From positions 1-37,848 of the IMG/VR virus record IMGVR_UViG_3300047479_000009: DNA of 37,848 nt, one strand, 5' to 3'. Made by a program: the position numbers and the translations under genes. Of this stretch, positions 6,126-31,209 are shown in pieces; position 1 is the stretch's first letter; each line of letters begins with the position of its first letter. The notes beneath the pieces were generated by a model, which saw only the letters and a program-made list of their open reading frames with translations, made no database searches and was not told the origin of the DNA. The stretch is from a virus. Its lineage: Duplodnaviria; Caudoviricetes.

Positions 6126-6243
6126 ATTTACCTTTAAGTCAAACCACCCCCCATACATCGCCAAGGGGCAGGTACGGCGCATCGCTGCGTTCGTGAAAGC
6201 TGGGCGATCAGCTACTTAATCGCATTTTCGTGATTGGTAATGA

Positions 6244-6921
6244 CTAGATCAAATAGCCTCTTTCCTGCATGAAATCTACAGGGTGCTTCTTATGCTTCTG
6301 ACTATTGCAACGCTGTCTAAGAAGTTGGATGTTGTCGTCAGTATTTGTACCACCCAGCGACAAGGGCATGATGTGGTCAAGGTGGTATTTCTCACCAAGC
6401 GGCTTTCCGCAACAGGCACATTTACCGCGCTGCAAAACAAAGAGCTTTTGCCTTAGCCCTTTTGACAGAATGCCACCAACGCTAAGTTTCCTTGACCTAC
6501 GTGCATGGTTTGCACGATATGCAGAATCAGGATTCTTATCGCGCCATGCCTTGCTTGATGCGCGGATACTCTCAATGTTTTCGCTGTAGTACCTTTGCTT
6601 TGTAACCTTTTCTTTTCCGCTGGCTGCGTGCTTTATCCTTGCCAGTTTCACCTTTTCAGGATTGTTTCTTTGCCATTCAGCTACCGTTTCGCTCTTTCTA
6701 TCCTTGTTTAACTGATAGTTTCGTGCGTTGCGTTCCTTTGCAGCATCAGAGTGTGCTTGGTAGTACCTAGCCTTAATGATGGCTTCTTTGTCCTTGTTTT
6801 CACGCTTCCACTTAGCGGAACCAGCAATTTTGCAAGGCTTGCATTGCCCACACTTGTAGCGCACGGTGTCGCATTGGCAAACCTTGCAATACCTAACTAC
6901 GGTAGAATTTGAATCGCTCAT
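6244..6921 (-). CDS. HNH endonuclease (free-standing homing-type)
   Basis: C-terminal CACC...HLDHIMPLSLGGTN...NIQLL...CN HNH motif and N-terminal CxxC pairs. Start revised to 6921. Confidence 0.85.
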   Translation of the reverse strand: MSDSNSTVVRYCKVCQCDTVRYKCGQCKPCKIAGSAKWKRENKDKEAIIKARYYQAHSDAAKERNARNYQLNKDRKSETVAEWQRNNPEKVKLARIKHAASGKEKVTKQRYYSENIESIRASSKAWRDKNPDSAYRANHARRSRKLSVGGILSKGLRQKLFVLQRGKCACCGKPLGEKYHLDHIMPLSLGGTNTDDNIQLLRQRCNSQKHKKHPVDFMQERGYLI

Positions 6922-6995
6922 AGCCTTCGTCCTCATAACGATGGTTTTTGGGAAGTAACACTCGGGGCCTGCCAGCCTCGGGTGTTGCGCTTATT

Positions 6996-7325: not shown

Positions 7326-8501
7326 CTATGTGTATAGAAGCAGGATTTCAATGTCTTCGTCTTCCTGCATTTGCATAGCCAAAGCACGTATCTGCATTAC
7401 TCGCTCAAAGTCCTGCTGTGCAATGATTTCCGGCAAGTTAACGGGTATAGAGAAGTGGCTCACCATATGAGCCAGCCAATCTATTTGCACTGTCTCTGCC
7501 GGTAGGACCGTCTCAGCCTTGATTACCTTTTCACGAAGGCGCTTTCTAGCTCTACGTGAAGTCCTTTGCGCCTCTTGGATAGCCGCTTCAGCCGCTTCGT
7601 CAGCCTCAATGAATGCGTCTGCCTCTTCTGCACTGTTAAACAGAAGGATTTGATTCTTGCGCTTGACGTACCATTTCCGCTTAGGCGTCAGGTCTACTTC
7701 GTTTGAGAATCCTGCAGAAGCCTCTCCGCTCCAGCTAAGTACCGCACTGCCGCCAGTAATAGAGTAGAAACCAGCGCCACCAGTAAGCGTGTAGTTGGTA
7801 GAACCAACCTTGACGAGATTGGCAGAGCCGCCAGTTATTGAGTAGCTACCCGCCAGAGCCGTGATACTTCTGCCAACCGACAGCGAAGCACTTCCACCGG
7901 ATAGGCTGTAAGTACCAGCCAAACCCGTCAACGAGTAGTTAACAGGTGCGCCCGTCTTGGTAAGTACCGCACTTCCACCCGTCAGCGAGTAGGAGCCAGC
8001 GTTAGCCGCTAGGTTTCTAGCTACGGTTAGGCTTGCAGAGCCACCAGAAAGGCTATAGGAGCCTGCCAAAGCGGTAAGGCTATAACTTATGCCTGCAACA
8101 CCTTTGGTAAGCGTTGCAGAGCCGCCAGTTAACGAGTAAGTACCCGCATTGGCAGTAAGTTGGCGTCCTACTTTAAGGACTGCCGTGCCACCTGTCAGGC
8201 TGTAAGTGCCAGCGTTTGCGGTGATCTTGCGACCAACCTTGAGAGAGGCTGTGCCACCCGTTAAGGCGTAAGAGCCTGCAAGCGCAGTTAGTGTGTATGC
8301 GGTTGAGCCTGACGTTTTTGTCAGTACCGCACTGCCACCAGTTAGCGAATAAGTCCCCGCTAAACCAGTGAGCGTGTATGAAGTCGGGCCACCAGCGGGA
8401 GGGTCTAACGAAAGCTCGTCAAACCAGCCTTCAGTCTTGGCAGTCTCGTCAAACCAGCCTTGTGGCAGGCCGGTGCTGTCAAACCAGCCGCGCCTTGTCA
8501 T
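7326..8501 (-). CDS. Repeat-containing virion fibre protein
   Basis: 391 aa. Nine 22-27 aa repeats (LTAxAGxYSLTGGSAxL), three N-terminal GWFD motifs and a charged C-terminal domain ending DEDIEILLLYT. Confidence 0.6.
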   Translation of the reverse strand: MTRRGWFDSTGLPQGWFDETAKTEGWFDELSLDPPAGGPTSYTLTGLAGTYSLTGGSAVLTKTSGSTAYTLTALAGSYALTGGTASLKVGRKITANAGTYSLTGGTAVLKVGRQLTANAGTYSLTGGSATLTKGVAGISYSLTALAGSYSLSGGSASLTVARNLAANAGSYSLTGGSAVLTKTGAPVNYSLTGLAGTYSLSGGSASLSVGRSITALAGSYSITGGSANLVKVGSTNYTLTGGAGFYSITGGSAVLSWSGEASAGFSNEVDLTPKRKWYVKRKNQILLFNSAEEADAFIEADEAAEAAIQEAQRTSRRARKRLREKVIKAETVLPAETVQIDWLAHMVSHFSIPVNLPEIIAQQDFERVMQIRALAMQMQEDEDIEILLLYT

Positions 8502-8504
8502 GGC

Positions 8505-9890
8505 TTACCAAGTGTAGACGATGCAATACCCTGCGCCGCCACCGCCACCGTTACCAGCAAGGCCCGGATTCATACCAACGCCGCCACCGCCGCCACCGCC
8601 GCCACCAATACCACCTGCTCCGCCGTCACCACCTGCCGCAGAAGCCAGTGCAGTTGCGCCACCACCTCCACCACCAGAACCACCGCGTCCAGAATTTGCA
8701 TTTGCGCCAGCAGAACCTACGCCTCCAGCAGCCGTTGTGCTTCCGTCAGTACCAGCAGCGCCACCGCCACCAGTGGTGTACGTTCCAGATTTTCCACCTG
8801 TACCGGCAGCAGCAGTTGTTGGTGTAGCAGTCGCGTGACCGCCACCAGCACCGCCACCTCCAGCTCCTTTGATGGATGATCCGGCAGCTAGAGCAGCAGC
8901 CGCAGCAGTTGTGCCTCCGCCTCCGCCACCGCCCCATTCGGCGCAGTTTGTAGCGGTAGTGCCAGCCGCCACGTTACCAACCCCACCGATTGCACCAGCA
9001 CCTCCGAGCGACCCGCCAGAGGTCGGAGCAGCACTATAGTACGGGCCACCAGCAGCACCACCCGATGTACCTGATGCGACAGCACCAGCACTTCCAGTAC
9101 CGCCACCGCCACCGCCACCTGTCACTGCTGCAGTAGTCTTTCCGCCAAGACCGCCGCCGCCACCAAAAGCGGTTAACCAAGAGCCGAAAGTTGACGTTCC
9201 TCCAATACCACCGTTACCACCAGCAGCACCAGCAGCGCCCTTGGCACCAGCAGTTCCACCAGAACCAATGGTCACGGTTTCAGTCGAGGCTAGATCAGCG
9301 GCAGCGAATCGCCCACAGTTGTATGCTCCACCACCTCCACCTCCACCTCCGCCGCCCGCAACAGCAGCGATAGAAGCACCAGCTCCTCCGCCACCGCCAC
9401 CGCCAAATATTTCAACAATCACCACCTTTGGGGTGAAAGTAGTAGGCTTTGTCCATGTGCCGCCAGTGCCGTTGAATATCTGAATATCAGCACCGCCAGA
9501 ATTGGCAGCACCAGCAGACAGGTCAATGCCTTGCGGGTTGCGGCGAATCCACCCACGCCCATCAACAAAAGCCAAGGACTCTCCGGGAGCCAGAGTTGAT
9601 GCGATCAGTTCGCTAGGGTTCGTACCATCTGTGTGGTACACCTCAACCGTGCTGGTCGTAGTGGCGTGATGGTTGTGAATCGCGCAATACTTGATGGCAC
9701 GATAGGTTGATGCAGCAGGCGCTGACACAATCGTAGTGTTACCAGTTCCGGTAATAGACGCAGTGTTTGTGCGACCCGGCGTGATGGTTCCAGCGTTGTT
9801 GTCAACCCAAGACGTGTGCACCTCAATGTCGGCACTTGCCACGGTTGTCGTTACATAGATACTGTCAGTGCTTGGTGCAAGAATAATCAT
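8505..9890 (-). CDS. Glycine-rich fibre/adhesin-like protein
   Basis: 461 aa. Beta-rich N-domain, then a TW.KP...GGGGGG...GxGYCIVYTW glycine-rich domain. Confidence 0.7.
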   Translation of the reverse strand: MIILAPSTDSIYVTTTVASADIEVHTSWVDNNAGTITPGRTNTASITGTGNTTIVSAPAASTYRAIKYCAIHNHHATTTSTVEVYHTDGTNPSELIASTLAPGESLAFVDGRGWIRRNPQGIDLSAGAANSGGADIQIFNGTGGTWTKPTTFTPKVVIVEIFGGGGGGGAGASIAAVAGGGGGGGGGGAYNCGRFAAADLASTETVTIGSGGTAGAKGAAGAAGGNGGIGGTSTFGSWLTAFGGGGGLGGKTTAAVTGGGGGGGTGSAGAVASGTSGGAAGGPYYSAAPTSGGSLGGAGAIGGVGNVAAGTTATNCAEWGGGGGGGTTAAAAALAAGSSIKGAGGGGAGGGHATATPTTAAAGTGGKSGTYTTGGGGAAGTDGSTTAAGGVGSAGANANSGRGGSGGGGGGATALASAAGGDGGAGGIGGGGGGGGGVGMNPGLAGNGGGGGAGYCIVYTW

Positions 9891-10033
9891 GCTGCGTCCC
9901 CAATGTTTAGGTGCGCGTTTGTTTCGGTGCGCTCAACCACCTGATACCCTTGGTAGGCTGAAATAGCCCACTCCATTGATGGTACAGAGACGATGTTTTC
10001 CACCACTCCGTTGAGAATCAGGAAAACGTCCAT
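9887..10033 (-). CDS. Small hypothetical protein (48 aa, not in ORF track)
   Basis: MDVFLILNGVVENIVSVPSMEW...GDAA*. Fills the operon gap, with an ATGA overlap at 9887-9890. Confidence 0.7.
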   Translation of the reverse strand: MDVFLILNGVVENIVSVPSMEWAISAYQGYQVVERTETNAHLNIGDAA

Positions 10034-14939: not shown

Positions 14940-15487
14940 GATAGCTCCTTTAGCTTGCGACGGTACGTTTCCTTGATTTCTATCAACTCTTCCCGAGTCC
15001 ACTTGTGAGGCGTGTTGTCAGCTTCCAATGCTTCGACTCGCTCCAGGCCAATCCTTGCTATCAGTCCAATGCGGTAGTCAACAGCGCGGCCTGCTCCGTA
15101 CCTGTTGCAGACTTTTCTCTGAGCATGGCAGTTGTCCTCGTTAAATCTAAGGTGACTCGCGCTACCAGTGCTGCGGTAGTGTCCAGCGTCGTAACCGCCA
15201 CCAACTGAGGATTCCCCGAGAGGCTGTCCACAGCAGATACACGGTCGAAGCTGATCCCGTAGACGTATGAAAGCGTTGAATGCAATTTGAGCGTCCTTGA
15301 TTAAGTCGGGGATTCGCTTGAGCGCAGCCTTCCTAGCTTTGTCGCGCTCAAGTTCTTCCTTTTTTTGAGCACGTACTAAGCGACTTGCACAAATTTGGGA
15401 GCACACAGCCTGTAGAGGCCTAACAGGAATGAAGTCGCAATCACACTGCCTGCAAGTCTTTTTCTTGCTTGAACTTATTTCCATCAA
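14933..15487 (-). CDS. ninG: NinG/Rap-family recombination endonuclease
   Basis: AQ.AFN.FIRLRD...PCICCG, YDAGHYRS.G...HLRF.E.NCHAQ and YR.GLI.RIG motifs. Confidence 0.9.
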   Translation of the reverse strand: MMEISSSKKKTCRQCDCDFIPVRPLQAVCSQICASRLVRAQKKEELERDKARKAALKRIPDLIKDAQIAFNAFIRLRDQLRPCICCGQPLGESSVGGGYDAGHYRSTGSASHLRFNEDNCHAQRKVCNRYGAGRAVDYRIGLIARIGLERVEALEADNTPHKWTREELIEIKETYRRKLKELSC

Positions 15488-16059
15488 ATTTCTCCTGTGC
15501 GCTTTAGGCGTGAATACAGCGTTGCATACTTGATGCCGCTTTTTCTAGCGACATTTGCAATCGTTACCTTCTCTCCGTCACGGATAAGAAATCTGTTGGT
15601 GCATGTATTATTTTGTTGCTCTCTATGTGTTGCCCACCTGCAATTTGAAGGCTCATAGTTACCGTTGCAGTCAATTCTTTCAAGTGTCATTCCGTCTGGA
15701 CGCGGCCCCATGTCTTCGTAAAACGACACGAATCCTTTTAGCCACTTTCCGCAAACCTGAATGCCTCTTCCTCCATATCGGTGGTAAGCCTCATGCGTTG
15801 GCAAGTAGCACCTAGAAATCATTGATGAATAACTTGAATGTCCTGGCGTCTTAGTGCCGATTCCATGAGTGCCCTTAGTTGTGCATGTCTTGCTTTTTCC
15901 ACAGATCAAATGCGTTTGATATATGGTTTTCTCCTTGCCGCACACGCACCTGCACTTCCACATGGCTTTATTGCACTTTGAATTTGGCGCTCTTTCTATA
16001 ACTGTCCAATCTCCAAAAACTTGACCTTGAAAAAAGTGTTTTTTTCTTGGATCAGTCAT
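15484..16059 (-). CDS. HNH-like homing endonuclease between ninB and ninG
   Basis: WKCRCVCG, YGGRGI.VC..W, DMG.RP...TLERID.NGNYEP.NCRWAT..EQ.NN. Confidence 0.85.
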   Translation of the reverse strand: MTDPRKKHFFQGQVFGDWTVIERAPNSKCNKAMWKCRCVCGKEKTIYQTHLICGKSKTCTTKGTHGIGTKTPGHSSYSSMISRCYLPTHEAYHRYGGRGIQVCGKWLKGFVSFYEDMGPRPDGMTLERIDCNGNYEPSNCRWATHREQQNNTCTNRFLIRDGEKVTIANVARKSGIKYATLYSRLKRTGEI

Positions 16060-16456
16060 GGAATACCACCCCGCGCTCTGCACCGAATGCCATTGCCAAT
16101 TCCAGCAACTCCGACATTTCCTCTTTAGTCATTTTGCTGGTGGACAAACCCAAGACTACGAAACCACCGTCAACCCCAGGCACTGTCCTTTGCTTGCGTA
16201 GCGAGGCAGTTAACATTGTTTTCCAATCGTCTGCGGTTAACTTTTCACCGTACCAACTGACTTGATTAGCTATGTCCGTCAGTGCTGCCCACATGAGCCG
16301 GTTTTGCTCATTGCTGCGCTTTTCCTTGCGTACCGTTACCTGTAGGCGGTGTCCGGCAGTGAGATAAGGCTTGATAGTTGCCCACAATTCTGAAAGTGCC
16401 TTGTGTCCCTGTTGAGCGTTGTATAGCGTGTAAGTGCTGCTCACTTGCAACTCCAA
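16052..16456 (-). CDS. ninB: NinB/Orf family recombination protein
   Basis: KRS.EQN..MWA.L.DIA.QV.W.G..L...DWK and G.STSKM...EMSEL.E...AFGAE.GV motifs. Confidence 0.9.
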   Translation of the reverse strand: MELQVSSTYTLYNAQQGHKALSELWATIKPYLTAGHRLQVTVRKEKRSNEQNRLMWAALTDIANQVSWYGEKLTADDWKTMLTASLRKQRTVPGVDGGFVVLGLSTSKMTKEEMSELLELAMAFGAERGVVFHD

Positions 16457-16945: not shown

Positions 16946-17124
16946 GTCATGTCACTCGGTAGCGCAAGAAAGATTTGCTTTTCATTCAATGCCTCTGCCC
17001 TTGCTATCAGGTAGCGAAGAAAAGGCATTGCTTCTTTGTTGATATGGAATGAAAACGTAGGGCTTTCGTCCTTTAGAGCAGGCTTAAACCAATCGACGTT
17101 GATAGCAATAGTTAAGTGCTTCAT
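16942..17124 (-). CDS. Hypothetical protein
   Basis: 60 aa with ATGA overlaps. Confidence 0.55.
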   Translation of the reverse strand: MKHLTIAINVDWFKPALKDESPTFSFHINKEAMPFLRYLIARAEALNEKQIFLALPSDMT

Positions 17125-17456
17125 ACGCGCCCCGTAATCTTTGAGAAGTGCTCTCGAAGGTTTGCTGGTATCGGTGCAGCCTTCTTGCTGTCCTCTGCAA
17201 TCTTCTTCAGCGCAGGGTCAATAGCAGTCTTGGACTCGGAGCGAAGTTGTCCAGGAAACACACCGCGCCAGCCCTTCATGATTGACTGCTCAAGACTGTT
17301 ATTCGGGTCGTAGCCTTCTTGGTGGAACTTCATAAGCTCCTTTAGGACTAGCTTCTTTGCGAACTCGGTAACTGGTGCGCGAGAACCCATCTTCTTACGC
17401 ATGGCCCAAAACTCTTCCCAAAGCTCGTTATCAATATAGGCTGGTAGACAATTCAA
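17121..17456 (-). CDS. Stand-alone C-terminal domain resembling lambdoid replication initiators
   Basis: LP..I..ELW..F..MRKK.....T......L..L......G.D....LEQSI..GW.G.F pattern. No N-terminal HTH or iterons seen. Confidence 0.55.
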   Translation of the reverse strand: MNCLPAYIDNELWEEFWAMRKKMGSRAPVTEFAKKLVLKELMKFHQEGYDPNNSLEQSIMKGWRGVFPGQLRSESKTAIDPALKKIAEDSKKAAPIPANLREHFSKITGRV

Positions 17457-17914: not shown

Positions 17915-17930
17915 CTTAGACCAGACTAAG
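17915..17930. promoter_or_regulatory. Repressor operator CTTAG-ACCAGA-CTAAG downstream of cro
   Basis: Perfect match to the CTTAG-N6-CTAAG palindrome found at 18136 and 19810. Confidence 0.6.
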
Positions 17931-18126
17931 GTTCTTTCCTTATGTTTTCAGGTAACATGTCTTCAAGCTTTACGCGCCCTTTTGTAAGTTTCTTAAGAGC
18001 CAACATGTGCTCTTTAGGTACTCCGTTAGTGCGCCATTGCGGAACTGCACCCGATGACAAACCGAAATGCTCAGTGACAAGCTTTACTCGGCCTCGTTTT
18101 TCATCCAACCATTCATTTAGTTTCAT
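17926..18126 (-). CDS. cro: Cro-like HTH regulator
   Basis: MKLNEWL...RGR...V..HFGLS.GAV.QW..NGVP. Divergent from the repressor. Start revised to 18126. Confidence 0.8.
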   Translation of the reverse strand: MKLNEWLDEKRGRVKLVTEHFGLSSGAVPQWRTNGVPKEHMLALKKLTKGRVKLEDMLPENIRKEP

Positions 18127-18193
18127 ACTAAGTATCTTAGCTGAAGCTAAGTTGACTGGCAACAATAGCTAAGAAACCCTACGCTGGACTAAG
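18117..18193. promoter_or_regulatory. OR-like region: pR (minus strand TTGCCA-17-TAAGAT, 18162..18134) and four operator-like sites
   Basis: Perfect CTTAGCTGAAGCTAAG at 18136-18151. CTAAG half-sites at 18128, 18147, 18169 and 18189, spaced 19-22 nt apart. Confidence 0.75.
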
Positions 18194-18197
18194 GTAT

Positions 18198-18719
18198 ATG
18201 ACTGACGAAAGAAGGAAGAAACGACTAAAGACGCTAATAGACGAGCGGTTTAGTGGTAGCCAGCGGCTTCTAACCGAGGCTATGGGATGGTCGAGTGGGA
18301 GAAGCTCTCAGCTTCTTAGCGATAAGTACCCGTTTGGCGAAGATGCAGCCAAAAAGATCATTGAAAAGCTAGAGCTAGACGAGGATTACTTTGATAGAGA
18401 CGCAGGAGAAGCAAAGCCAGCCGCACCTGTGCTTGAAAAGCAAGACATGGCTATGGCCCTGTTTAACGCTTACACGGCGCTAGTCAAAGTTCTAAGCAAG
18501 AACGGTGCGCTACATGTTGCAGACCTATCCAACGAGATAGGAAACACACTAGACTTTAGACGGTCGAATGGGATTGAGTCAGCAGATCAGAACCACATGC
18601 TGGAGCTTGTCTACAAATCGGTTCTGCAAATTGAAAAGTTTGAATCTGACCTTGCAGCTCTAAAAGCTGACTTTGATAAGAAGCTTCAAGACTTGCACAA
18701 GCCTCCTCGTACTGAGTAG
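18198..18719 (+). CDS. cI: CI-like repressor (N-terminal HTH, no S24 peptidase domain)
   Basis: R...L..LI.ERF.GSQ..L...MG.S....SQLL......GE..A.KI..KL.L...YFD. The C-terminal half is helical, with no recognisable Ser/Lys dyad motifs. Confidence 0.8.
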   Translation: MTDERRKKRLKTLIDERFSGSQRLLTEAMGWSSGRSSQLLSDKYPFGEDAAKKIIEKLELDEDYFDRDAGEAKPAAPVLEKQDMAMALFNAYTALVKVLSKNGALHVADLSNEIGNTLDFRRSNGIESADQNHMLELVYKSVLQIEKFESDLAALKADFDKKLQDLHKPPRTE

Positions 18720-18738
18720 CAATCATAAATTCTGTCAT
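18556..18738 (-). CDS. 60-aa ORF antisense to the cI 3' end, candidate SOS-induced antirepressor
   Basis: GGTGAGGT-AAAAAA-ATG RBS and an upstream TTGCGT-17-GATAAT promoter overlapped by a LexA-type box. Confidence 0.5.
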   Translation of the reverse strand: MTEFMIATQYEEACASLEASYQSQLLELQGQIQTFQFAEPICRQAPACGSDLLTQSHSTV

Positions 18739-18758
18739 TTTTTTACCTCACCTAAGAG

Positions 18759-18790
18759 CTGATTATCCGTACAGCCTTTAGTGAACGCAA
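18759..18790 (-). promoter_or_regulatory. Sigma70-type promoter TTGCGT-17-GATAAT overlapped by SOS box CTGTACGGATAATCAG (18759-18774)
   Basis: CTG-N10-CAG with a CTGTA half-site, matching the beta/gammaproteobacterial LexA consensus. It covers the -10 element. Confidence 0.6.
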
Positions 18791-18833
18791 GAGAGCAAGT
18801 TGTGGATAAGTAAGTTTTTTGAAAGCGTTAAAA

Positions 18834-19001
18834 ATGAACTTCTTTTGGGCGGCTGTATGGGCTGCAGTCGGCTTCTGGATATGGCCTACAGGGATAACAG
18901 ACACACCCTTTGCACAGCTAACCTTAAGCATGTTGGGTGCAGCTTTGGTGTCAGTTGTGTCATTCGTAGCCTGCTTCAACAACATGATTGAAGGCAAGTA
19001 G
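18834..19001 (+). CDS. Small membrane protein (two hydrophobic segments) in the cI transcription unit
   Basis: MNFFWAAVWAAVGFWIW...LSMLGAALVSVVSFVACF. Confidence 0.55.
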   Translation: MNFFWAAVWAAVGFWIWPTGITDTPFAQLTLSMLGAALVSVVSFVACFNNMIEGK

Positions 19002-19002
19002 C

Positions 19003-19206
19003 ATGACGGAAGACGAATCAGCTATCTACTACCGCTGCCTTAACTGCGGCTCTGAACGCATCAAGATCACCGGAGAGCCTAAGTTCGCTGACAATAACAT
19101 CGTCACCTGTACCGTCTGCGGGAACTTTTGGACAAAACGAGATTTTGATCAAGCCAACTTTGAGGCAGTGAGCAAGCTGCTCAACGTAGACGGAAAACCC
19201 AACTGA
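19003..19206 (+). CDS. Small zinc-ribbon protein
   Basis: CLNCGS...CTVCGN (two CxxC motifs), with an AAGG RBS. Confidence 0.65.
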   Translation: MTEDESAIYYRCLNCGSERIKITGEPKFADNNIVTCTVCGNFWTKRDFDQANFEAVSKLLNVDGKPN

Positions 19207-19293
19207 AACTCCGCTGTTGATCAATGAGGTGTGAATCCCTCCGATCTGCGACCATAGTTTCGTAGTGTCAGCACCAATCATTTAGCACTCCAT

Positions 19294-19320
19294 GCCCTCC
19301 TAGCGAGGGCTTTTTGTTTT
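19294..19320 (+). terminator. Intrinsic terminator of the cI operon
   Basis: GCCCTC-CTAGC-GAGGGC-TTTTTGTTTT. Confidence 0.85.
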
Positions 19321-19727
19321 CCAACGAGTCCCCTACTGTCTTTACCCTGTATCTACTACTTAAGAACTTTCCCTTGGTGGATTGTTTAGGGTGCAGCAAG
19401 CTAACCCTACCTAAAGAGTACTTACTGCGTCTTTCCCTCGGAGCCATTGCCTGAGAGCTTGGAACTGGACAAGTCAACCTGCCAGAACATCCGAATCCTT
19501 AAGCGGGGATTGACCCACTCCTACCAGGCGATTCAGTCACGCTAAAACCTGTCTATCCCCTTGGCCCTGCTTGGGATTAGCAGCTTGTACGCAGTCGTCC
19601 AATACAAGCGCTGAAAGCAAAAAAACCTCTAGTTCCTGCTTTCATAGGCTCGCACCCTATTGCCATTGAAGGCAGAAAGCAGAGGCTAGAGGCTTCTGCA
19701 CGTCTACTGGTGCGAGCATTAGACGTT
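19321..19727 (-). ncRNA. Putative structured non-coding RNA (about 108-nt terminated form, about 400-nt read-through form)
   Basis: No convincing ORF. Many hairpins, complementary loops CTCGCAC/GTGCGAG, a U7 tract, and an upstream TAGACT-18-TAAAAT promoter. Confidence 0.55.
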
Positions 19728-19731
19728 AAGG

Positions 19732-19827
19732 ATTTTACTTGAGTTCTTAGCTACAAGTCTAATAACCTTACTTTTAGCTCAACTTCTCTTAATTCTGCTT
19801 GCATTGTTTCTTAGCTACAACTAAGAT
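19732..19827. promoter_or_regulatory. OL-like region: pL (plus strand TTGCAT-17-TAAGAT, 19799-19827), a divergent minus promoter (19761..19732), and operators at 19746 and 19810
   Basis: CTTAGCTACAACTAAG at 19810-19825 and CTTAGCTACAAGTCTA at 19746-19761. Same -10/operator overlap as at pR. Confidence 0.75.
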
Positions 19828-19862
19828 AACCACATTGCAGCAAACAACGAAGGGGTGAAGAA

Positions 19863-20228
19863 ATGTACGAACCGACAACCGCCTGGGACAGAGCACCGAC
19901 TGACAAAGAGCTTGAAAACTTCTACGGCAAGCCAGCTAAGACTGACGTGCGTGACAGCTACTTTGAAGTGCTGACAGAAAGCATTCGCAAGGTGCCTGCC
20001 GCCAATCTGGCACTTGTGTACTACAGCAGTTCAAAGAATGGCCTTGCTCAGTATTCCGTGCCTGAAGTAGTCACTGACTACGGCACTGATCCCAAGCCTC
20101 TGGAAGCCCTTCTGGCGGTGCTTGAGAAGTCCGACTGCCCACTGGTGCAAAAGTACCGCGAAGCCCTGGCAGAGCATTTTGCAGATCGCAACGCTGACGA
20201 AGTTGAATATTTCAAGAGCGAGGACTGA
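19863..20228 (+). CDS. Hypothetical early protein (first gene of the pL operon)
   Basis: 121 aa with an AGGGGTG RBS. Confidence 0.75.
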   Translation: MYEPTTAWDRAPTDKELENFYGKPAKTDVRDSYFEVLTESIRKVPAANLALVYYSSSKNGLAQYSVPEVVTDYGTDPKPLEALLAVLEKSDCPLVQKYREALAEHFADRNADEVEYFKSED

Positions 20229-21944: not shown

Positions 21945-22412
21945 ATGCGTAAACGTAGCAGTTACCGCCCTAAACCTGTACGTGCTGACGCTGTTAGTTG
22001 GGTGCTGGCAGGTATGAAACCAATGCGGGACGTACCAGCTACAACCACGCTCAGATTGCGCAATCACTTGGCTCTTGAGTCCTTGTTGAAAGGCACTGGC
22101 ACTAGGGCTGACGTTGATTTGATTATTGGTGCTTTGAATATGTGTGAAGTCCTAGCTTTATGGGGCAAAGGTGACGATTACAGAGCCGAGATTTCAGCAG
22201 CACAAGACGCATTGTTTGCAATGGCTGTACGTGGTGCTAAGACAGGGCGATTCTTGTTTACCGGCCCTGAAATGCAAGCAGTGAAACTTGGAATGGAGAT
22301 ACATGACGCGCAGCTAGACGTGTCTTTAGTCTCAGATATTGAGAAGGCTACGGACTACGTTTTTCATGCAATAGCAAACAAGAAAGCAAAGGTAATTCGT
22401 GAGTACGTCTAA
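21945..22412 (+). CDS. Hypothetical protein
   Basis: 155 aa with a basic N-terminus, MRKRSSYRPKPV. Confidence 0.75.
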   Translation: MRKRSSYRPKPVRADAVSWVLAGMKPMRDVPATTTLRLRNHLALESLLKGTGTRADVDLIIGALNMCEVLALWGKGDDYRAEISAAQDALFAMAVRGAKTGRFLFTGPEMQAVKLGMEIHDAQLDVSLVSDIEKATDYVFHAIANKKAKVIREYV

Positions 22413-22749
22413 AGAAAATGGCAAGCCAGGACGGGTGTGCAACGTGTGTAAAGAGTGGCACCCGTATGACAACTTGGTTAGCGCTAAGGGAAATAACGCG
22501 CACAGCACTGGCTACCGTCCACTGTGCAAGCCTTGCCGCAAGCTGAAACAGCACCAATACCGTGCTGAAAACCTTGGATTCAAGTCTCCGCTACCAGTGA
22601 AGGTGCCGAACAAGTGGGCACAAGAGCCGCTACCAAATCAGTCGCCAGGGCAACTGATTAACAAAATGGTAGGTGTGTATGTACCGCCGCCAAGCTACGT
22701 CAGGAATGACGGTTTAAAGCACATTCCTTCAAGGGGTTTTCCATGCTAG
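22399..22749 (+). CDS. Zinc-finger-containing hypothetical protein
   Basis: CNVCK...CKPC motifs. Confidence 0.65.
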   Translation: MSTSKENGKPGRVCNVCKEWHPYDNLVSAKGNNAHSTGYRPLCKPCRKLKQHQYRAENLGFKSPLPVKVPNKWAQEPLPNQSPGQLINKMVGVYVPPPSYVRNDGLKHIPSRGFPC

Positions 22750-23779: not shown

Positions 23780-24423
23780 CAGACGCAGAAACACTGGCAA
23801 CCCAAATCGACCAAGGCGACTTCTCAATGAGTGACCTGCAACGTGCCGCAGAACTACTCCGTCAGCAGGCGGCTGATATAGCAAACCTGCACACTGTGAT
23901 GATGGCCGCTGCGGTTGAGATTAGTGAGCATTGGGAGGCGCACTGTGACAGCGAGGGATATGGACCTGCCAATCTGGTTCGTCGCTTGGAGAACGGGTTT
24001 CCAGAGCAGTACGGCTATGACGCGCAGACAATAGTGCGGATGCAGAAACAGCTTGATGAACAAGCGGCTGAGATAGAGCGACTGACAAAACGAACCGAAG
24101 GAAATACAAATGGACGATGCAACTACCTTCGATTTAATTTGCATGGCGATATGGTTATGGGTGGTGACGCCAATAGTGTTGTGGGCTGTATCGAAGTTCA
24201 TTCCCTGATTGAAAAACTACAAGCTGAAATAGACAACATCAAGCTAGTGGAGTTTCCGCGCAGACTCGGCAAAGTGACTAAGCATGTCATTGCAGAGCGC
24301 GACAAACTCCGCACCTTGATCTCCAAACTCCACACGGCAAAGGGCCGCTACCACACACAACTTGCGGTGTGTGATTTGTTCGATGCCGTTGGACTAAAAA
24401 ATGAAAGGCCAGCGAATGATTGA
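23776..24423 (+). CDS. Modular coiled-coil protein (Ea22/Ead-like region)
   Basis: 215 aa with AAELLRQQAA and QAAEIERL linkers. Ends GLKNERPAND. Confidence 0.7.
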   Translation: MTDAETLATQIDQGDFSMSDLQRAAELLRQQAADIANLHTVMMAAAVEISEHWEAHCDSEGYGPANLVRRLENGFPEQYGYDAQTIVRMQKQLDEQAAEIERLTKRTEGNTNGRCNYLRFNLHGDMVMGGDANSVVGCIEVHSLIEKLQAEIDNIKLVEFPRRLGKVTKHVIAERDKLRTLISKLHTAKGRYHTQLAVCDLFDAVGLKNERPAND

Positions 24424-25444
24424 ACAAGCAAAACCGTGTGAACACTGGCTCAAAGGATTGATTAGCGGCGCATGGAAACAGCAGTGCGTGTACTGTGAGA
24501 ATGACCAACTCCGCACAGAGGTGGAGCAGTACAAAGCTGATTGGAAAGCCTGCACTGCAATGAACCGCGAGTTGCTGGCAGAAGTTGAGCGGATGCGTGT
24601 CGATGCTGAACGACTGAACTTTATCCAAGCCAACCCGAAATTAAGACTATGTAACTACAAACGTCGTTGGGCGCTTGTTGGTTTAACCAACTACGAGTAC
24701 GACACGTTTAAGACCGTGCGTGAAGCCATAGATGCTGCCATTGGCGAAACAGTCGGAATCAATGGGCTAACCACCACAGAGACTGACGCAACTGCATCAG
24801 TAATGGGGTTGGTTAAGCAGGAGCAAGCAGAGCCGGTATGGAAAGATATAGACGAATGCGATGGCTATGAGGTTTCAAGTCACGGTGATGTTAGAAACAA
24901 AAAGACTGGAAAGATATTAGCCAAGAATCTAATGGGCGCTGGTTACGTTAAAGCAGATATGTGGCTTAACGGGAAGCGTAAACAAACGTCAGTCCATCGC
25001 CTAGTTGCTACAGCCTTCCTAGGCCCGTCTGAGGGAAGAGAAGTAAACCATAAAAACGGCGACAAACAAGATAACCGTGTAGAAAACCTTGAGTGGTGCA
25101 GTAGGAGCGACAACGTAAATCACAACTACTACAAGCTAGGAGCGTTAATAAAGCCAATAAAGATTACCAACATTGAAACCGGTGAAGTGCTGCACTTCCC
25201 ATCATGCAATGAGGCAACTAGGCATGGATTCAAATCAGCAAGAATCCATGAGTGTCTTTCTGGTAAACGTGACTCGTATGGTGGTTTTATGTTTGAGTAT
25301 GACACCGCACCCCAAGGCCAAACCGCCCTGCTAAAGCAGGCTCTGAAGGCGTTGCAGGGCACAGGAACGCCCGGTGGATGCAAAGCCTATCTCCGTGAAT
25401 TAGCCGCAATCGAAGCTATCAAACAGCACTTGGGGGAAGCATGA
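24416..25444 (+). CDS. Modular protein containing a NUMOD4-HNH endonuclease domain
   Basis: WKDI....GYEVSS.G.VRN (NUMOD4) and VHRLVA.AFL......VNHKNGDKQDNRVENLEW (HNH). Start revised to 24416. Confidence 0.85.
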   Translation: MIEQAKPCEHWLKGLISGAWKQQCVYCENDQLRTEVEQYKADWKACTAMNRELLAEVERMRVDAERLNFIQANPKLRLCNYKRRWALVGLTNYEYDTFKTVREAIDAAIGETVGINGLTTTETDATASVMGLVKQEQAEPVWKDIDECDGYEVSSHGDVRNKKTGKILAKNLMGAGYVKADMWLNGKRKQTSVHRLVATAFLGPSEGREVNHKNGDKQDNRVENLEWCSRSDNVNHNYYKLGALIKPIKITNIETGEVLHFPSCNEATRHGFKSARIHECLSGKRDSYGGFMFEYDTAPQGQTALLKQALKALQGTGTPGGCKAYLRELAAIEAIKQHLGEA

Positions 25445-27046: not shown

Positions 27047-27261
27047 CAGAGGCACAAGTTATTTCACGCGCAATATCACGCGCTTATCCTCCGGTTGTTA
27101 TGAGCCTTGAGGACGTTGCTGACGTGCTTGGGTACTCAGTCAACTATGTCCGTAACGACTTGCAGCACCAGCCAGGATTCCCGCCGAAGCTCGATAGGTT
27201 CAAGCAACCGCGTTGGGACAGGGCGACCGTGTTGGCATGGGCTGGTGTTCAGTCCAACTGA
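27043..27261 (+). CDS. xis: AlpA-like excisionase
   Basis: DVA..LG.S..YV........GFP......PRW....V..W. Convergent with the integrase. Confidence 0.75.
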   Translation: MTEAQVISRAISRAYPPVVMSLEDVADVLGYSVNYVRNDLQHQPGFPPKLDRFKQPRWDRATVLAWAGVQSN

Positions 27262-28241
27262 CCAGCCATGTCCTGCGCTGACTTGCGAAAATAGATCAGC
27301 AACGAGGACAGATCACGGTGCCCAATCATTCGGGCTAATTCGTGAATAGACAGTTTCTGCGCCAGCCGAGTGACCGCCGTTGCTCGACTGTCGTGGAAGT
27401 GCAAGTCTTTCAGTTTCAGCTTATCCCTAGCCCTGCGAAACACAACGTCCAGCACCGCAGGCTTGAGTGTGAACACCATTTCACTGTCCACGCCCTTCAT
27501 GCGCTCAAGAAGGGCCACGGCTACCTTAGACAATGGAACGTCCCTTGCGTCACCATTCTTGGTTTCTTCCAGTGTCACAAACCGCTTATCCAAGAATACC
27601 CTGCCCCACTCTAGCCCAAGCATTTCTGAAGCTCTCATGGCGGTTTCTAAGGCCAACAGAAGGGCTAAACCCGCTTGCTGTCCCATGCTTTCAGGCTTGC
27701 CAATAGGTTGGTAGCCAAGCTGGTTTAAAACCCCTGTAACCTCGCTGTCGGTAAACAATCGCTTCCGTGCTGGTGGTTGTGGTGGTTTCTTAACGTCAGA
27801 CAATGGATTTACAAGGATAGTGCCCCAATCCCGCCTAGCTGACTCAAACACACCGGACAGGATTGCAAGCTCTTTCAAAACCGTCGCAGGTTTGACCTGT
27901 GCTGCCCGAATGTCCCTAAAACGGCTTAGATCAGCCGCAGTGACCTCGTTTACTTGTCTCAGTACAGGTAGTAGTCCAGGCGTGGAAGAAAGCGATTTAA
28001 GGCGCAATGACACGTTAGCGCCCGACTTCATTTCTGGGCAAACTTCCTTACGGTAGCGGTCAATGGTGTCCTGTAAGGTAGCCTTTGCCACGCCCTTACG
28101 CATGGCCCTAAGTTCGGCCTCTTTTGCGTAGCCCCAAGCTGAAGCCTTAGACTTGCTGTCAAAGATTTGGGACTCTTGCGGGAAACCAACAAGCCTAACT
28201 ATCGCTTGGAATCCGGTGTCGCGTTTGCGTATGGTTGGCAT
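27249..28241 (-). CDS. int: Tyrosine recombinase (integrase)
   Basis: Catalytic motifs TAMRASE, TKNG, HFHDSR and GH...L.IY. Confidence 0.95.
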   Translation of the reverse strand: MPTIRKRDTGFQAIVRLVGFPQESQIFDSKSKASAWGYAKEAELRAMRKGVAKATLQDTIDRYRKEVCPEMKSGANVSLRLKSLSSTPGLLPVLRQVNEVTAADLSRFRDIRAAQVKPATVLKELAILSGVFESARRDWGTILVNPLSDVKKPPQPPARKRLFTDSEVTGVLNQLGYQPIGKPESMGQQAGLALLLALETAMRASEMLGLEWGRVFLDKRFVTLEETKNGDARDVPLSKVAVALLERMKGVDSEMVFTLKPAVLDVVFRRARDKLKLKDLHFHDSRATAVTRLAQKLSIHELARMIGHRDLSSLLIYFRKSAQDMAGQLD

Positions 28242-28446: not shown

Positions 28447-30075
28447 TTACTTTTCTTTGGCGTAGTTGTAGCCAAGCAATCCAAGACTTGTACCTCCGCT
28501 GATTAAACTCAATAGCTCGTTAAGAGCTTTGCCGCTTTCGTCGTAACCAAATTCATGGATTGAGTCGCCATTGGTAAACAGTTTCCGCGCTGGCACTTGC
28601 TGCTGGATAACCCTGTAATTGCCGCCCAATGGCCCTTCGCCGTGAATTTTGGCGTAATCAGGATTGATTGTTACCCAATCGCCGTTATTGATCTTTGCAC
28701 CTTCCGCAACGTCACTAGGGACTGCGCGGTACATCGTGACAGGCGCATCAGGATTCCCCCTGTAAGCGTTTATCTTTCGGATTGTTCAACGGTCTAACGC
28801 AGGCTCTCCATGCCCGTAATACTGCGCTGCTTTTGGTGAATAAATGTCATCAGGATAAACCTTTGTCAGATCGTGCAAAGGTGCGCTTACATCATCGCTT
28901 TTCATGGGGGCTTTATGATGACCAACATACGCATCACGCTCGGCAGTAGTGGAAACTTGTTTTACAGGCTGTCCGTTGCGCTCAAGAATAGACATTTGCG
29001 GTCCATTTCCACTATGTCGCACGATTAGCTGATTGATTGGTACATCGTATGAATCTTCAGGGAATAGCGCCCTGCGTTGTGCGTCATCAAGTCCAATACG
29101 GGATTGTGTTGCGCGAGCTTCTGCCTCGCCTGCAAGCCGTTTGTAATACTCCTTTGCCGCCGTTTCTTGTGCCGCCCTATCAATCTCAGGAGTGATACCA
29201 GATTTGATTTGTTTTACATACTGCTTATAAGCGTCAGCCACTTCCTGAGTTATTGACCCAGTTCCCCACGCTTGTTTTGCATAGTCTTCAATTGGCATGG
29301 GGGTATGCATTTTCCCAAGCAATCCCTTGTAAATGCTCCACGCTTCAGGGTCAGAAAATGACATGGCAGAACTTCCGCCACGCGCAAAGCCTTCAATATC
29401 TTGTACACCATGCTGCACCTCATGGGCAAGAATTGAATTCAATGAGTTTTGCGTCGGCGCTCTAGCGAGTATGTTTGCACCTAAATATTGACCGTCCATC
29501 GTTGAAGTCCCATAAGCTCCTTTGGTGCGATTTGGAGACACTTCAACGTCTGCTTCAATATTTCTCAATTGTGGGTAAGCATCAAAAGCCGTTTTGTGTG
29601 TGTATGCAGCTTCCAATGGCCCTGCAATTCCAATTGATCCATTTGGAGCACCAACAGAAGTACTTGCAGCCTTATCGCTAATCTCCTGCCGCCATTTACC
29701 GTCTGGTGCCTTCCATGTACCTGTCTCGCTCCAAATCTGGCGAGGTGCCACACCTTGAGCGGATAGGTATTCAGCCTTCTTAGCTGCAATAGCGTCCCAA
29801 ACCTTAGCACCCTTACCGATAAACATCAGCGGGCCAATGTTTTCAGAAGCAAACCGTCCTGCTTGATTCTGCAAAGCCTGATTAGCAGGCCCGTAGCCTT
29901 TTTCCTTTACAGCATCAGCAAGCAATCCATTCTGCACCCGAGCGTCGTCATTGCCCTGCCCTACCGCTTGTTTCAGGTAGTCAATTGGAGAGTCTAGGAG
30001 ACTATTGACATTGCGCTTCAGTGCGTTAGAGCGCGAGTAGATAAAAGGTAGTACGTCACCCAATAAGCCTGCCAT
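28447..30075 (-). CDS. Polyvalent-type effector (LPD23-like + HExxH metallopeptidase + C-terminal ART-like domain) interrupted by an in-frame TGA at 28786-28788
   Basis: ETG.W...DGKWR.EISD, AHEVQH...LAGEAEAR, then ...ALDR*TIRKINAYRGNPDAPVTMYRAVP...GDWVT...SIHEFGY, all in one frame. Confidence 0.7.
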
Positions 30076-30593: not shown

Positions 30594-30823
30594 AGTTCAC
30601 CCCAGTTAGTGATGTACTTACGTCCTTGCGTCAATTCCAACCACAGCATCCAAACCGCAGTCCCTGCGCCGTGCGCTTCTTCAAACCTGCCCTGCCGCAC
30701 ATACTGTTCACGCTTGGCAAGGATTTTTGCCATTGCCACAGCTTCCAATTCGGTAATGCGCTCGTCCTGCAAGTTGATTTGCGATAGGACGTTTTCAGCG
30801 TTTGGTAGATTGCTCATGGGCAT
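30590..30823 (-). CDS. Hypothetical protein
   Basis: About 77 aa, within the lysis operon. Confidence 0.6.
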   Translation of the reverse strand: MPMSNLPNAENVLSQINLQDERITELEAVAMAKILAKREQYVRQGRFEEAHGAGTAVWMLWLELTQGRKYITNWGEL

Positions 30824-31209
30824 CCAGGGCTTAACTTGTTGCCACCGTAGACGCGTCTTTCAAAGTGGTCTTTAGAGAATGGCCCTTGTGCGCTCTTTAT
30901 CTCGTCTGGGAGCCACTGCATATTCGACACCGCATCAATCCCGCCGCAATCAAGGGGCACGACATGATCGATTGCCCAACCCTTGCAGGCTCCGGTGTGC
31001 TTTCCTGTGGCTGGACAGGCCCATTGCTTTTTGAAGGCCGCGATAACTTTGTCGCTTCGCGCTGTTTTTCCATCGGCTGCGCGAACAACTTGCCCAACAT
31101 AGCGATAGTCCTTCATGGGGTCCAACGTCTGGGCGCGCACCGTGCCACTAAGCACGATGACCCAAATCAGGAAACAGATAGCGAAAACAATCCGGTGAAA
31201 GCGGCTCAT
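30814..31209 (-). CDS. HNH-like nuclease with an N-terminal signal peptide/TM helix
   Basis: Hydrophobic N-terminus ending VRA-Q, then CPATG...GAC.GW.IDHVVPL.CGG.D...NMQW. Confidence 0.65.
   Translation of the reverse strand: MSRFHRIVFAICFLIWVIVLSGTVRAQTLDPMKDYRYVGQVVRAADGKTARSDKVIAAFKKQWACPATGKHTGACKGWAIDHVVPLDCGGIDAVSNMQWLPDEIKSAQGPFSKDHFERRVYGGNKLSPGCP

Follow-up and report, generated by a model that had tools for sequence, protein, structure and literature searches.

The stretch of DNA analysed here (the window) is a full phage record of 37,848 nt with direct terminal repeats at its ends. Its gene order is lambdoid: a cro-like gene and replication genes run leftward, and a cI-like repressor gene runs rightward; beyond it come a pair of small cargo ORFs, a terminator (19294) and the early recombination genes. 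The elements considered below are the following, in coordinates of the window.

17121-17456: replication O-like gene, after the cro-like gene (PHROG match)
17926..18126, minus strand: cro-like HTH gene with its ATG at 18126, transcribed divergently from cI as the first lytic gene (matches to Pfam YdaS/P22_Cro-like and to PHROG regulators)
18134..18162, minus strand: P_R-like promoter TTGCCA-17-TAAGAT amid CTAAG/CTTAG half-sites of putative operator function
18198..18719, plus strand: cI-like repressor gene, 173 aa, with an N-terminal HTH, a linker and a C-terminal domain predicted to form three helices (about aa 78-167)
18429..18716, plus strand: C-terminal domain of CI, belonging to an unnamed family with the core G-N-T-x-D-F-R-R
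18556..18738, minus strand: ORF60, 60 aa, candidate antirepressor, with 164 of its 183 nt shared with cI and 19 nt outside it
18628..18738, minus strand: codons 1-37 of ORF60, a predicted single acidic helix (5 D/E, 0 K/R)
18745..18752, minus strand: Shine-Dalgarno sequence GGTGAGGT (-8.4 kcal/mol), then six A, then the ATG at 18738
18759..18774: predicted LexA (SOS) box CTGTACGGATAATCAG, 39 nt past the cI stop, over the -10 GATAAT (18767-18762)
18785..18790, minus strand: -35 TTGCGT of the leftward (antisense) promoter, with a 17-nt spacer to GATAAT
18801..18809, minus strand: TTATCCACA, the only exact copy in the genome, 11 nt upstream of the -35
18819..19206, plus strand: rex-like slot with two small cargo ORFs, the first of which is replaced in relatives
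19294..19310, plus strand: intrinsic terminator, the first found after cI
27249..28241, minus strand: tyrosine integrase (profile matches)

The positions that the initial annotation had given for cI, the box, the promoter, the Shine-Dalgarno sequence and the ORF (60 aa, 164-nt overlap) were reproduced base for base. The tyrosine integrase marks the phage as temperate, and a PHROG scan showed that the genome also encodes an ERF recombinase, NinB, NinG, an O-like replication protein, terminase, portal and capsid. None of 58 ORFs, compared with PHROGs in batches of 13 and 45, matched a named antirepressor or S24 family. The cargo ORFs of the rex-like slot encode a hydrophobic protein of 55-60 aa and a Zn-ribbon protein of 67 aa that starts at the ATG at 19003. 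Since the first terminator after cI is the one at 19294..19310, the cI transcript would cross the leftward promoter. Among public runs the locus was best matched by freshwater metagenomes, from which this DNA may have come, and no RNA dataset was among the listed runs that matched it. Relatives of the CI domains occur in Variovorax and Polaromonas, from which we infer a host in the Comamonadaceae.

Other parts of the genome also deserve mention. Across 19320-19860 some 500 nt are free of long ORFs; this segment contains CTAAG/CTTAG half-sites at 19746, 19810 and 19821 and a TAAGAT -10 resembling that of P_R, spotted by eye, with no Rfam match; from these letters it is probably P_L/O_L. Five HNH or endonuclease-VII-like ORFs (6244-6936, 15484-16083, 22399-22749, 24401-25444 and 30814-31209) are present in this 38-kb genome. 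Between the lysis region and the integrase lie a 429-aa ORF (28786-30075, minus strand) and a ParB-C-terminal-like 95-aa ORF (28447-28734, minus strand); both align with parts of long unnamed PHROG families and are possibly fragments of a single large protein.

Analysis of the repressor indicated that residues 4-82 match HTH transcription-regulator families (three PHROG hits, best E 2e-5), and a search for an S24 peptidase matched no Pfam and no NCBIfam family. The AlphaFold model of CI is all-helical, without any strand, and places three helices in residues 81-167 (pLDDT 70-84), the HTH part being of low confidence; a fold search with this model against the pdb and viral sets returned nothing at E 0.001 or better. 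We also looked for the conserved A/C-G cleavage site of S24 proteins, and the sole A-G of CI, at position 69, is absent from the relatives P0001 and P0002. Both the family searches and the model thus bear out the earlier statement that CI is without an S24 domain, and they support a repressor that lacks a self-cleavage domain and would be non-cleavable.

Six full-length relatives retain the C-terminal domain; in three of them it follows the HTH type of CI and in the other three a different one. It also exists as stand-alone proteins of 75-104 aa, of which 13 were picked and more appeared in a further search. Two of these could be placed: one at 8001-8276 of the phage L001, after its cI, and one at 9595-9894 of the Variovorax prophage L218, between Q-like and terminase-like genes (labels read from the translations). 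Because these stand-alone loci are cargo, the domain appears to be a mobile cargo module, either joined to repressors or shed from them, and a copy on its own could act on the fused repressors as a dominant-negative partner. At neither of the two loci does a box directly follow the stand-alone gene, and the proposal that the domain is always accompanied by a box was rejected. A profile of the domain matched one of 401 genomes of the family, weakly, in a Mu-like region without a good box. The loci of the full-length relatives P0002-P0006 were sought in viral, metagenome and genome contigs and in annotated phages, and none was confirmed; the Zn-ribbon protein, used as a query for these loci, gave one 13-residue match.

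The bare pattern CTG-N10-CAG occurs 14 times in the window and 15.2 times in shuffled sequence, that is, at chance level, and we therefore used a matrix built from lexA and recA operators. The matrix comprises 97 unique operators upstream of Comamonadaceae lexA (34 loci, two without a box) and recA (30 loci, two without), the host group being deduced from relatives of the CI domains. With this matrix no site in the genome scores higher than the box at 18759-18774 (14.4 bits), in agreement with the earlier assignment; the runner-up, at 11.1 bits, lies within the endolysin gene. Sites of this score are expected at 0.0016 per 200 nt, and 27 of 100 whole-genome shuffles hold one somewhere. In a leave-one-out comparison the box outscores 21% of real operators, so it is a plausible operator and not a strong one; one real recA operator of the training set equals the box with two positions different. 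The promoter below it is weak, with 8 of 12 consensus matches, which falls under the 9-of-12 threshold of our scan, and 68 sites of such grade exist in the genome. It is the only site with at least 7 of 12 matches on either strand in 18700-18850. Upstream of it lies TTATCCACA, which we take to be the DnaA-box consensus. This site is possibly a second host input on the leftward promoter; our search of the open-access literature for DnaA and LexA boxes occurring together found nothing.

The Shine-Dalgarno sequence of ORF60 ranks within the top 6% of those of 1012 ATGs. An open antisense run of 54 codons in the register of ORF60 was found in 5% of windows in other genes. An antisense ATG with a strong Shine-Dalgarno sequence near the stop was seen in two of 56 genes, cI and the Zn-ribbon gene. 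Over the latter runs an antisense ORF of 87 codons (19018-19281, minus strand) whose Shine-Dalgarno-like letters belong to the terminator stem 19294-19310, and its presence is therefore probably due to chance.

Searches for homologues of ORF60 among 5.8 billion proteins found none, and its exact sequence is absent from the protein collection. Neither did tblastn of 50,697 phage records find any; the best Atlas score was 0.83. Pfam and NCBIfam gave no hit, and PHROGs gave a single unnamed family at E 0.006. These blanks are weak counter-evidence, because gene callers tend to discard overlapped ORFs. A single-sequence model predicts one helix over residues 4-44 of the peptide, with a pLDDT of 76-89 for residues 1-30. 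Residues 9-28 align ungapped with residues 147-166 of CI, its last helix, at a marginal score (p=0.03 against shuffles) that 4% of antisense-register controls reach and that the reversed peptide exceeds; BLASTP and hhalign found no match between ORF60 and the CI tail. We therefore did not accept sequence mimicry of the CI tail and keep it as a hypothesis only. The minus-strand transcript is no better folded than shuffled sequences (z 0.79) and has no Rfam match, and no minus-strand terminator was found between 18556 and cro.

To follow the locus in related phages, we aligned to it contigs from eight of the 15 listed public runs; one run, X8, yielded no coverage. In contigs X3 and X4, which come from two studies and for which every counted difference is listed, all 16 bases of the box and the ATG are unchanged amid changes at 18744, 18750, 18755-18758 and 18780. 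The Shine-Dalgarno core GAGGT is retained in both, with one adjoining change in X3, and the ATG is retained in X11 as well (five of five differences listed). The -35 TTGCGT is kept in X4 and X6. The aligned block of X13 (18435-18774; 340 nt and 36 differences, of which 31 are listed) runs out exactly at the final base of the box, and in the unaligned end of the contig TTGCTA stands 18 nt ahead of GATAAT. X6 shares 18785-18825 with the window and differs in the DNA to the left, where a promoter TTGCGT-17-GAAAAT has again a box, a different one, over its -10; the core of that box scores 10.4, against 14.1 for the box of the window. Up to five unplaced differences in X13 and 16 in X7 might fall in the Shine-Dalgarno sequence or the box. 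The gene to the right of the box is replaced in X4, X6, X7 and X13, and the box therefore travels with the leftward side. Beside TTATCCACA, X4 and X6 have an 11-nt insertion behind 18799 that starts with a CTGT half-site, and X13 is without the TTATCCACA site. We considered CTAAG at 18752 as an operator for CI next to the box and did not accept it, since X3 and X4 differ in this motif.

The pooled listed differences are unevenly spread over the cI codons. Third positions vary in 18 of 38 codons before the overlap and in 10 of 23 over residues 38-60 of ORF60, whereas over residues 8-37 they vary in 4 of 30, against 28 of 61 for the rest (p=0.002). Such a pattern agrees with an additional constraint from the helical part of ORF60, and recent recombination could also have produced the low variation. 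All listed changes in codons 1-60 of ORF60 alter the residue. Those in codons 1-37 are F4I, A7T, Y10F, S16N, S23I and T34I, of which F4I and A7T fall in the 19 nt outside cI; changes after codon 37 are often drastic. No stop in ORF60 appears among the listed variants of five related contig sets, which carries little weight, as a stop would arise from only 3 of the 98 synonymous changes possible in cI. Conservation in relatives, which the initial annotation had named as a check, holds for the box, the ATG and the GAGGT core in X3 and X4.

An independent case was found in the phage L001 (G550), an unrelated phage that came to our attention through its stand-alone C-terminal domain and not through a box. 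Its short cI encodes a 118-aa repressor, and 123 nt past that gene comes the box that scores highest in the 39-kb genome of this phage (19.8 bits). The box is followed by a Shine-Dalgarno-led antisense ORF of 61 aa, recorded as a called gene, which shares 80 nt with cI. The same genome has two near-identical inverted SOS-box promoter regions, 6171-6230 and 7445-7505, 1.3 kb apart. The second copy precedes an unrelated hydrophobic ORF of 109 aa whose ATG directly follows the box, which suggests that its message would be leaderless.

We also surveyed repressor genes more widely. Of 145 entries, 140 other distinct repressors were kept; those with less than 250 nt after the stop or shorter than 90 aa were dropped, and boxes were sought from -30 to +300 relative to the stop. 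A box of at least 12 bits near the stop was found in 2 of 51 other short repressors and in none of the 89 long ones (Fisher p=0.13), where short and long were divided at 190 aa without a domain scan and many entries come from taxa with other LexA motifs. The two boxed short repressors are those of L001 and of L093, whose box falls within a gene, and we rejected the idea that short repressors generally carry a box. The antisense-ORF layout recurs and is not a rule among the sampled short repressors. High LexA-like sites, up to 18.6 bits, also occur in or upstream of other repressor genes, in L008, L085 and L009 (in the last at -363 and -900 relative to the cI stop); these may be coding coincidences or alternative LexA wiring into immunity regions.

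The anatomy observed in the window comprises an HTH repressor without S24, an integrase, the box, the Shine-Dalgarno sequence and ORF60. Since CI is without a self-cleavage domain and a predicted LexA box covers the predicted leftward promoter, DNA damage would likely release the ORF60 transcript. We hold, with moderate confidence, that ORF60 so released is a peptide antirepressor acting on the C-terminal helices of CI. The matrix scores and the conservation suggest that host LexA would keep the leftward promoter closed in the lysogen; RecA-triggered cleavage of LexA would open it, and the strong Shine-Dalgarno sequence would then yield ORF60. If the helix prediction and the example of AimX/AimC are a guide, the peptide would, through about residues 4-37, replace a partner helix of CI and break CI oligomers, upon which P_R and P_L would fire and the prophage would induce. 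Antisense or collision effects on cI might help, and we treat them as secondary. The proposal of a LexA-type box over a leftward promoter with a Shine-Dalgarno-led ORF as the likely inducer thus gains support from both computation and conservation.

It is unlikely that a genuine LexA-gated promoter acts through its RNA instead, convergent transcription or antisense pairing lowering cI and perhaps reaching cro, with the ORF incidental or serving to protect the transcript. Such an explanation agrees with the purely non-synonymous changes in ORF60, its lack of homologues and the failure to find a minus-strand terminator between 18556 and cro, and is opposed by the strong Shine-Dalgarno sequence and the ATG retained in relatives, and by a transcript without structure (z 0.79) or Rfam match. 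Halting the synthesis of a stable repressor is, besides, a slow route to induction. A precedent is offered by lambda, in which, according to the accessible text, oop-pO has a LexA site and OOP suppresses cII (PMC5869508); in phi106 and phiW23, in contrast, the preprint text available describes little effect of the antisense transcript without the protein (bioRxiv 10.1101/2025.11.23.689978). The three roles first ascribed to the transcript (peptide message, antisense or colliding RNA, and read-through toward cro) are thus not upheld as a set, with RNA and collision minor in those Bacillus phages, an unstructured RNA in the window, and read-through resting on the terminator search just mentioned.

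Somewhat less probable still is that the SOS-induced product of ORF60 acts on something other than CI, such as a host protein, cell division or a co-resident prophage, and that induction proceeds by another route. The second promoter and box of L001, which precede the unrelated 109-aa hydrophobic ORF, speak for it, as they imply that SOS promoters in such a slot drive cargo too. In the window, however, no other inducer is recognisable, the next-best box sits within the endolysin gene, and ORF60 is physically bound to the coding region of the CI tail. We give about the same low probability to a chance assembly of a middling box, a weak promoter and an accidentally open antisense frame. Its ingredients are common enough taken one by one: an equal site in 27 of 100 genome shuffles, 68 promoter matches of equal grade, 5% of antisense windows open and a Shine-Dalgarno-led antisense ORF in one of 55 other genes. 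Yet here all features fall within 55 nt, the box is unchanged amid changed flanks, the geometry is kept with other letters in X6 and X13, and L001 has the same layout with a 19.8-bit box. That the box governs the rightward cargo genes, or that LexA is a roadblock to the cI transcript entering them, is very improbable: the box does lie between cI and the cargo, with the first terminator at 19294, but no plus-strand promoter match of at least 7 of 12 exists in 18700-18850, and relatives swap the cargo while the box stays.

Returning to ORF60 as a peptide antirepressor of CI, a broader version of this reading can be put forward tentatively, and we rate it as doubtful. A single portable induction cassette would unite the CI C-terminal domain and its tail helix with the SOS promoter and the peptide encoded in antisense; in it, a cargo protein that also occurs on its own would have been fused to various HTH domains, and the same 90 bp would encode the oligomerisation helix of CI and, on the opposite strand, the decoy helix that breaks it. 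With both helices encoded by the same 90 bp, lock and key would be inseparable by recombination.

Many Proteobacterial prophages have a repressor without S24 and no annotated antirepressor, and their damage sensing is therefore unexplained. If our reading is true, one answer has been hidden from annotation on the opposite strand of cI, and a layout demonstrated by experiment in Bacillus extends to a freshwater, Proteobacteria-type phage without arbitrium, in which the peptide is nearly wholly overprinted on the repressor. It also offers a small testable pair, a 96-aa domain and a helix of about 40 aa.

Among known systems, the window differs from the auto-cleaving S24 repressors, lambda CI and LexA, since its CI has no S24 hit and an all-helical model. 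With Tum of 186, AntC of N15 and GfoA-GftA of Gifsy it would share SOS control through a small LexA-repressed gene in place of repressor cleavage, a likeness that is predicted here. As the accessible text of one study describes, the Gifsy antirepressors are under LexA and outside the immunity region, and 186 Tum and N15 AntC are named as similar, which accords with the separate loci cited for them in the initial annotation; the genes lie beside or fused with dinI in Gifsy and 186, whereas ORF60 overlaps cI (PMC3121763). Pfam, NCBIfam and tblastn of phage records showed no similarity of ORF60 to the Tum, AntC, GfoA or GftA families. Sar-SroF of SPbeta-like phages and lambda oop-pO are looser parallels than AimX-AimC. 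The former has an SOS box upstream of a small antirepressor near the repressor gene, but Sar sits an ORF further downstream, and the accessible part of the preprint mentions no overlap; Sar mimics DNA, the repressor having an integrase-like fold (bioRxiv 10.1101/2025.11.27.690993). In lambda, the available texts show an antisense promoter with a LexA site reaching over the 3' end of the gene for a lysogeny regulator; there the non-coding OOP RNA is directed against cII, and the window has a Shine-Dalgarno-led ORF against cI (PMC5869508, PMC7067206). An OOP-like structured RNA with its own terminator was not seen in the window (z 0.79, no minus-strand terminator, no Rfam match).

The closest parallel is the AimX-AimC pair of the phi106 family. 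In the accessible text of the preprint, the 29-aa AimX of phi106 starts just past a LexA site, overlaps by 30 bp, in antisense, the 3' end of the non-cleavable aimC, binds AimC and blocks its oligomerisation; in phi106 and phiW23 the effect was lost when the start codon became a stop and persisted when the overlap was recoded, so that RNA and collision have minor roles there (bioRxiv 10.1101/2025.11.23.689978). The principle of nesting is thus not new, phi106 aimX having an equal layout in which, on this account, the protein acts and not the antisense RNA, and the earlier claim that nesting within cI sets the window apart from all known systems does not stand. A search of the open-access literature, with subscription papers outside its scope, found no Proteobacterial case of an antisense ORF overlapping a repressor gene. 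Shared with AimX-AimC, as far as that text goes, are a short non-cleavable HTH repressor, a divergent cro-like gene, a LexA site before a small ORF antisense to the 3' end of the repressor gene (LexA binding being predicted here), and a helical peptide facing a helical repressor C-terminal domain, again predicted here. The window differs in having a Proteobacteria-type LexA box, an overlap of 164 nt against 30 bp, a CI of 173 aa against the 80-140 aa reported for extended arbitrium repressors, and no aimR or aimP; only ORFs under 90 aa lie in 18719-19863, and no such family was matched. The sequences are unrelated as far as the searches show, and binding was demonstrated for AimX and is presumed for ORF60. 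Without aimR and aimP the locus is not a member of the AimX-AimC-AimL module but, by analogy, would likely work like it.
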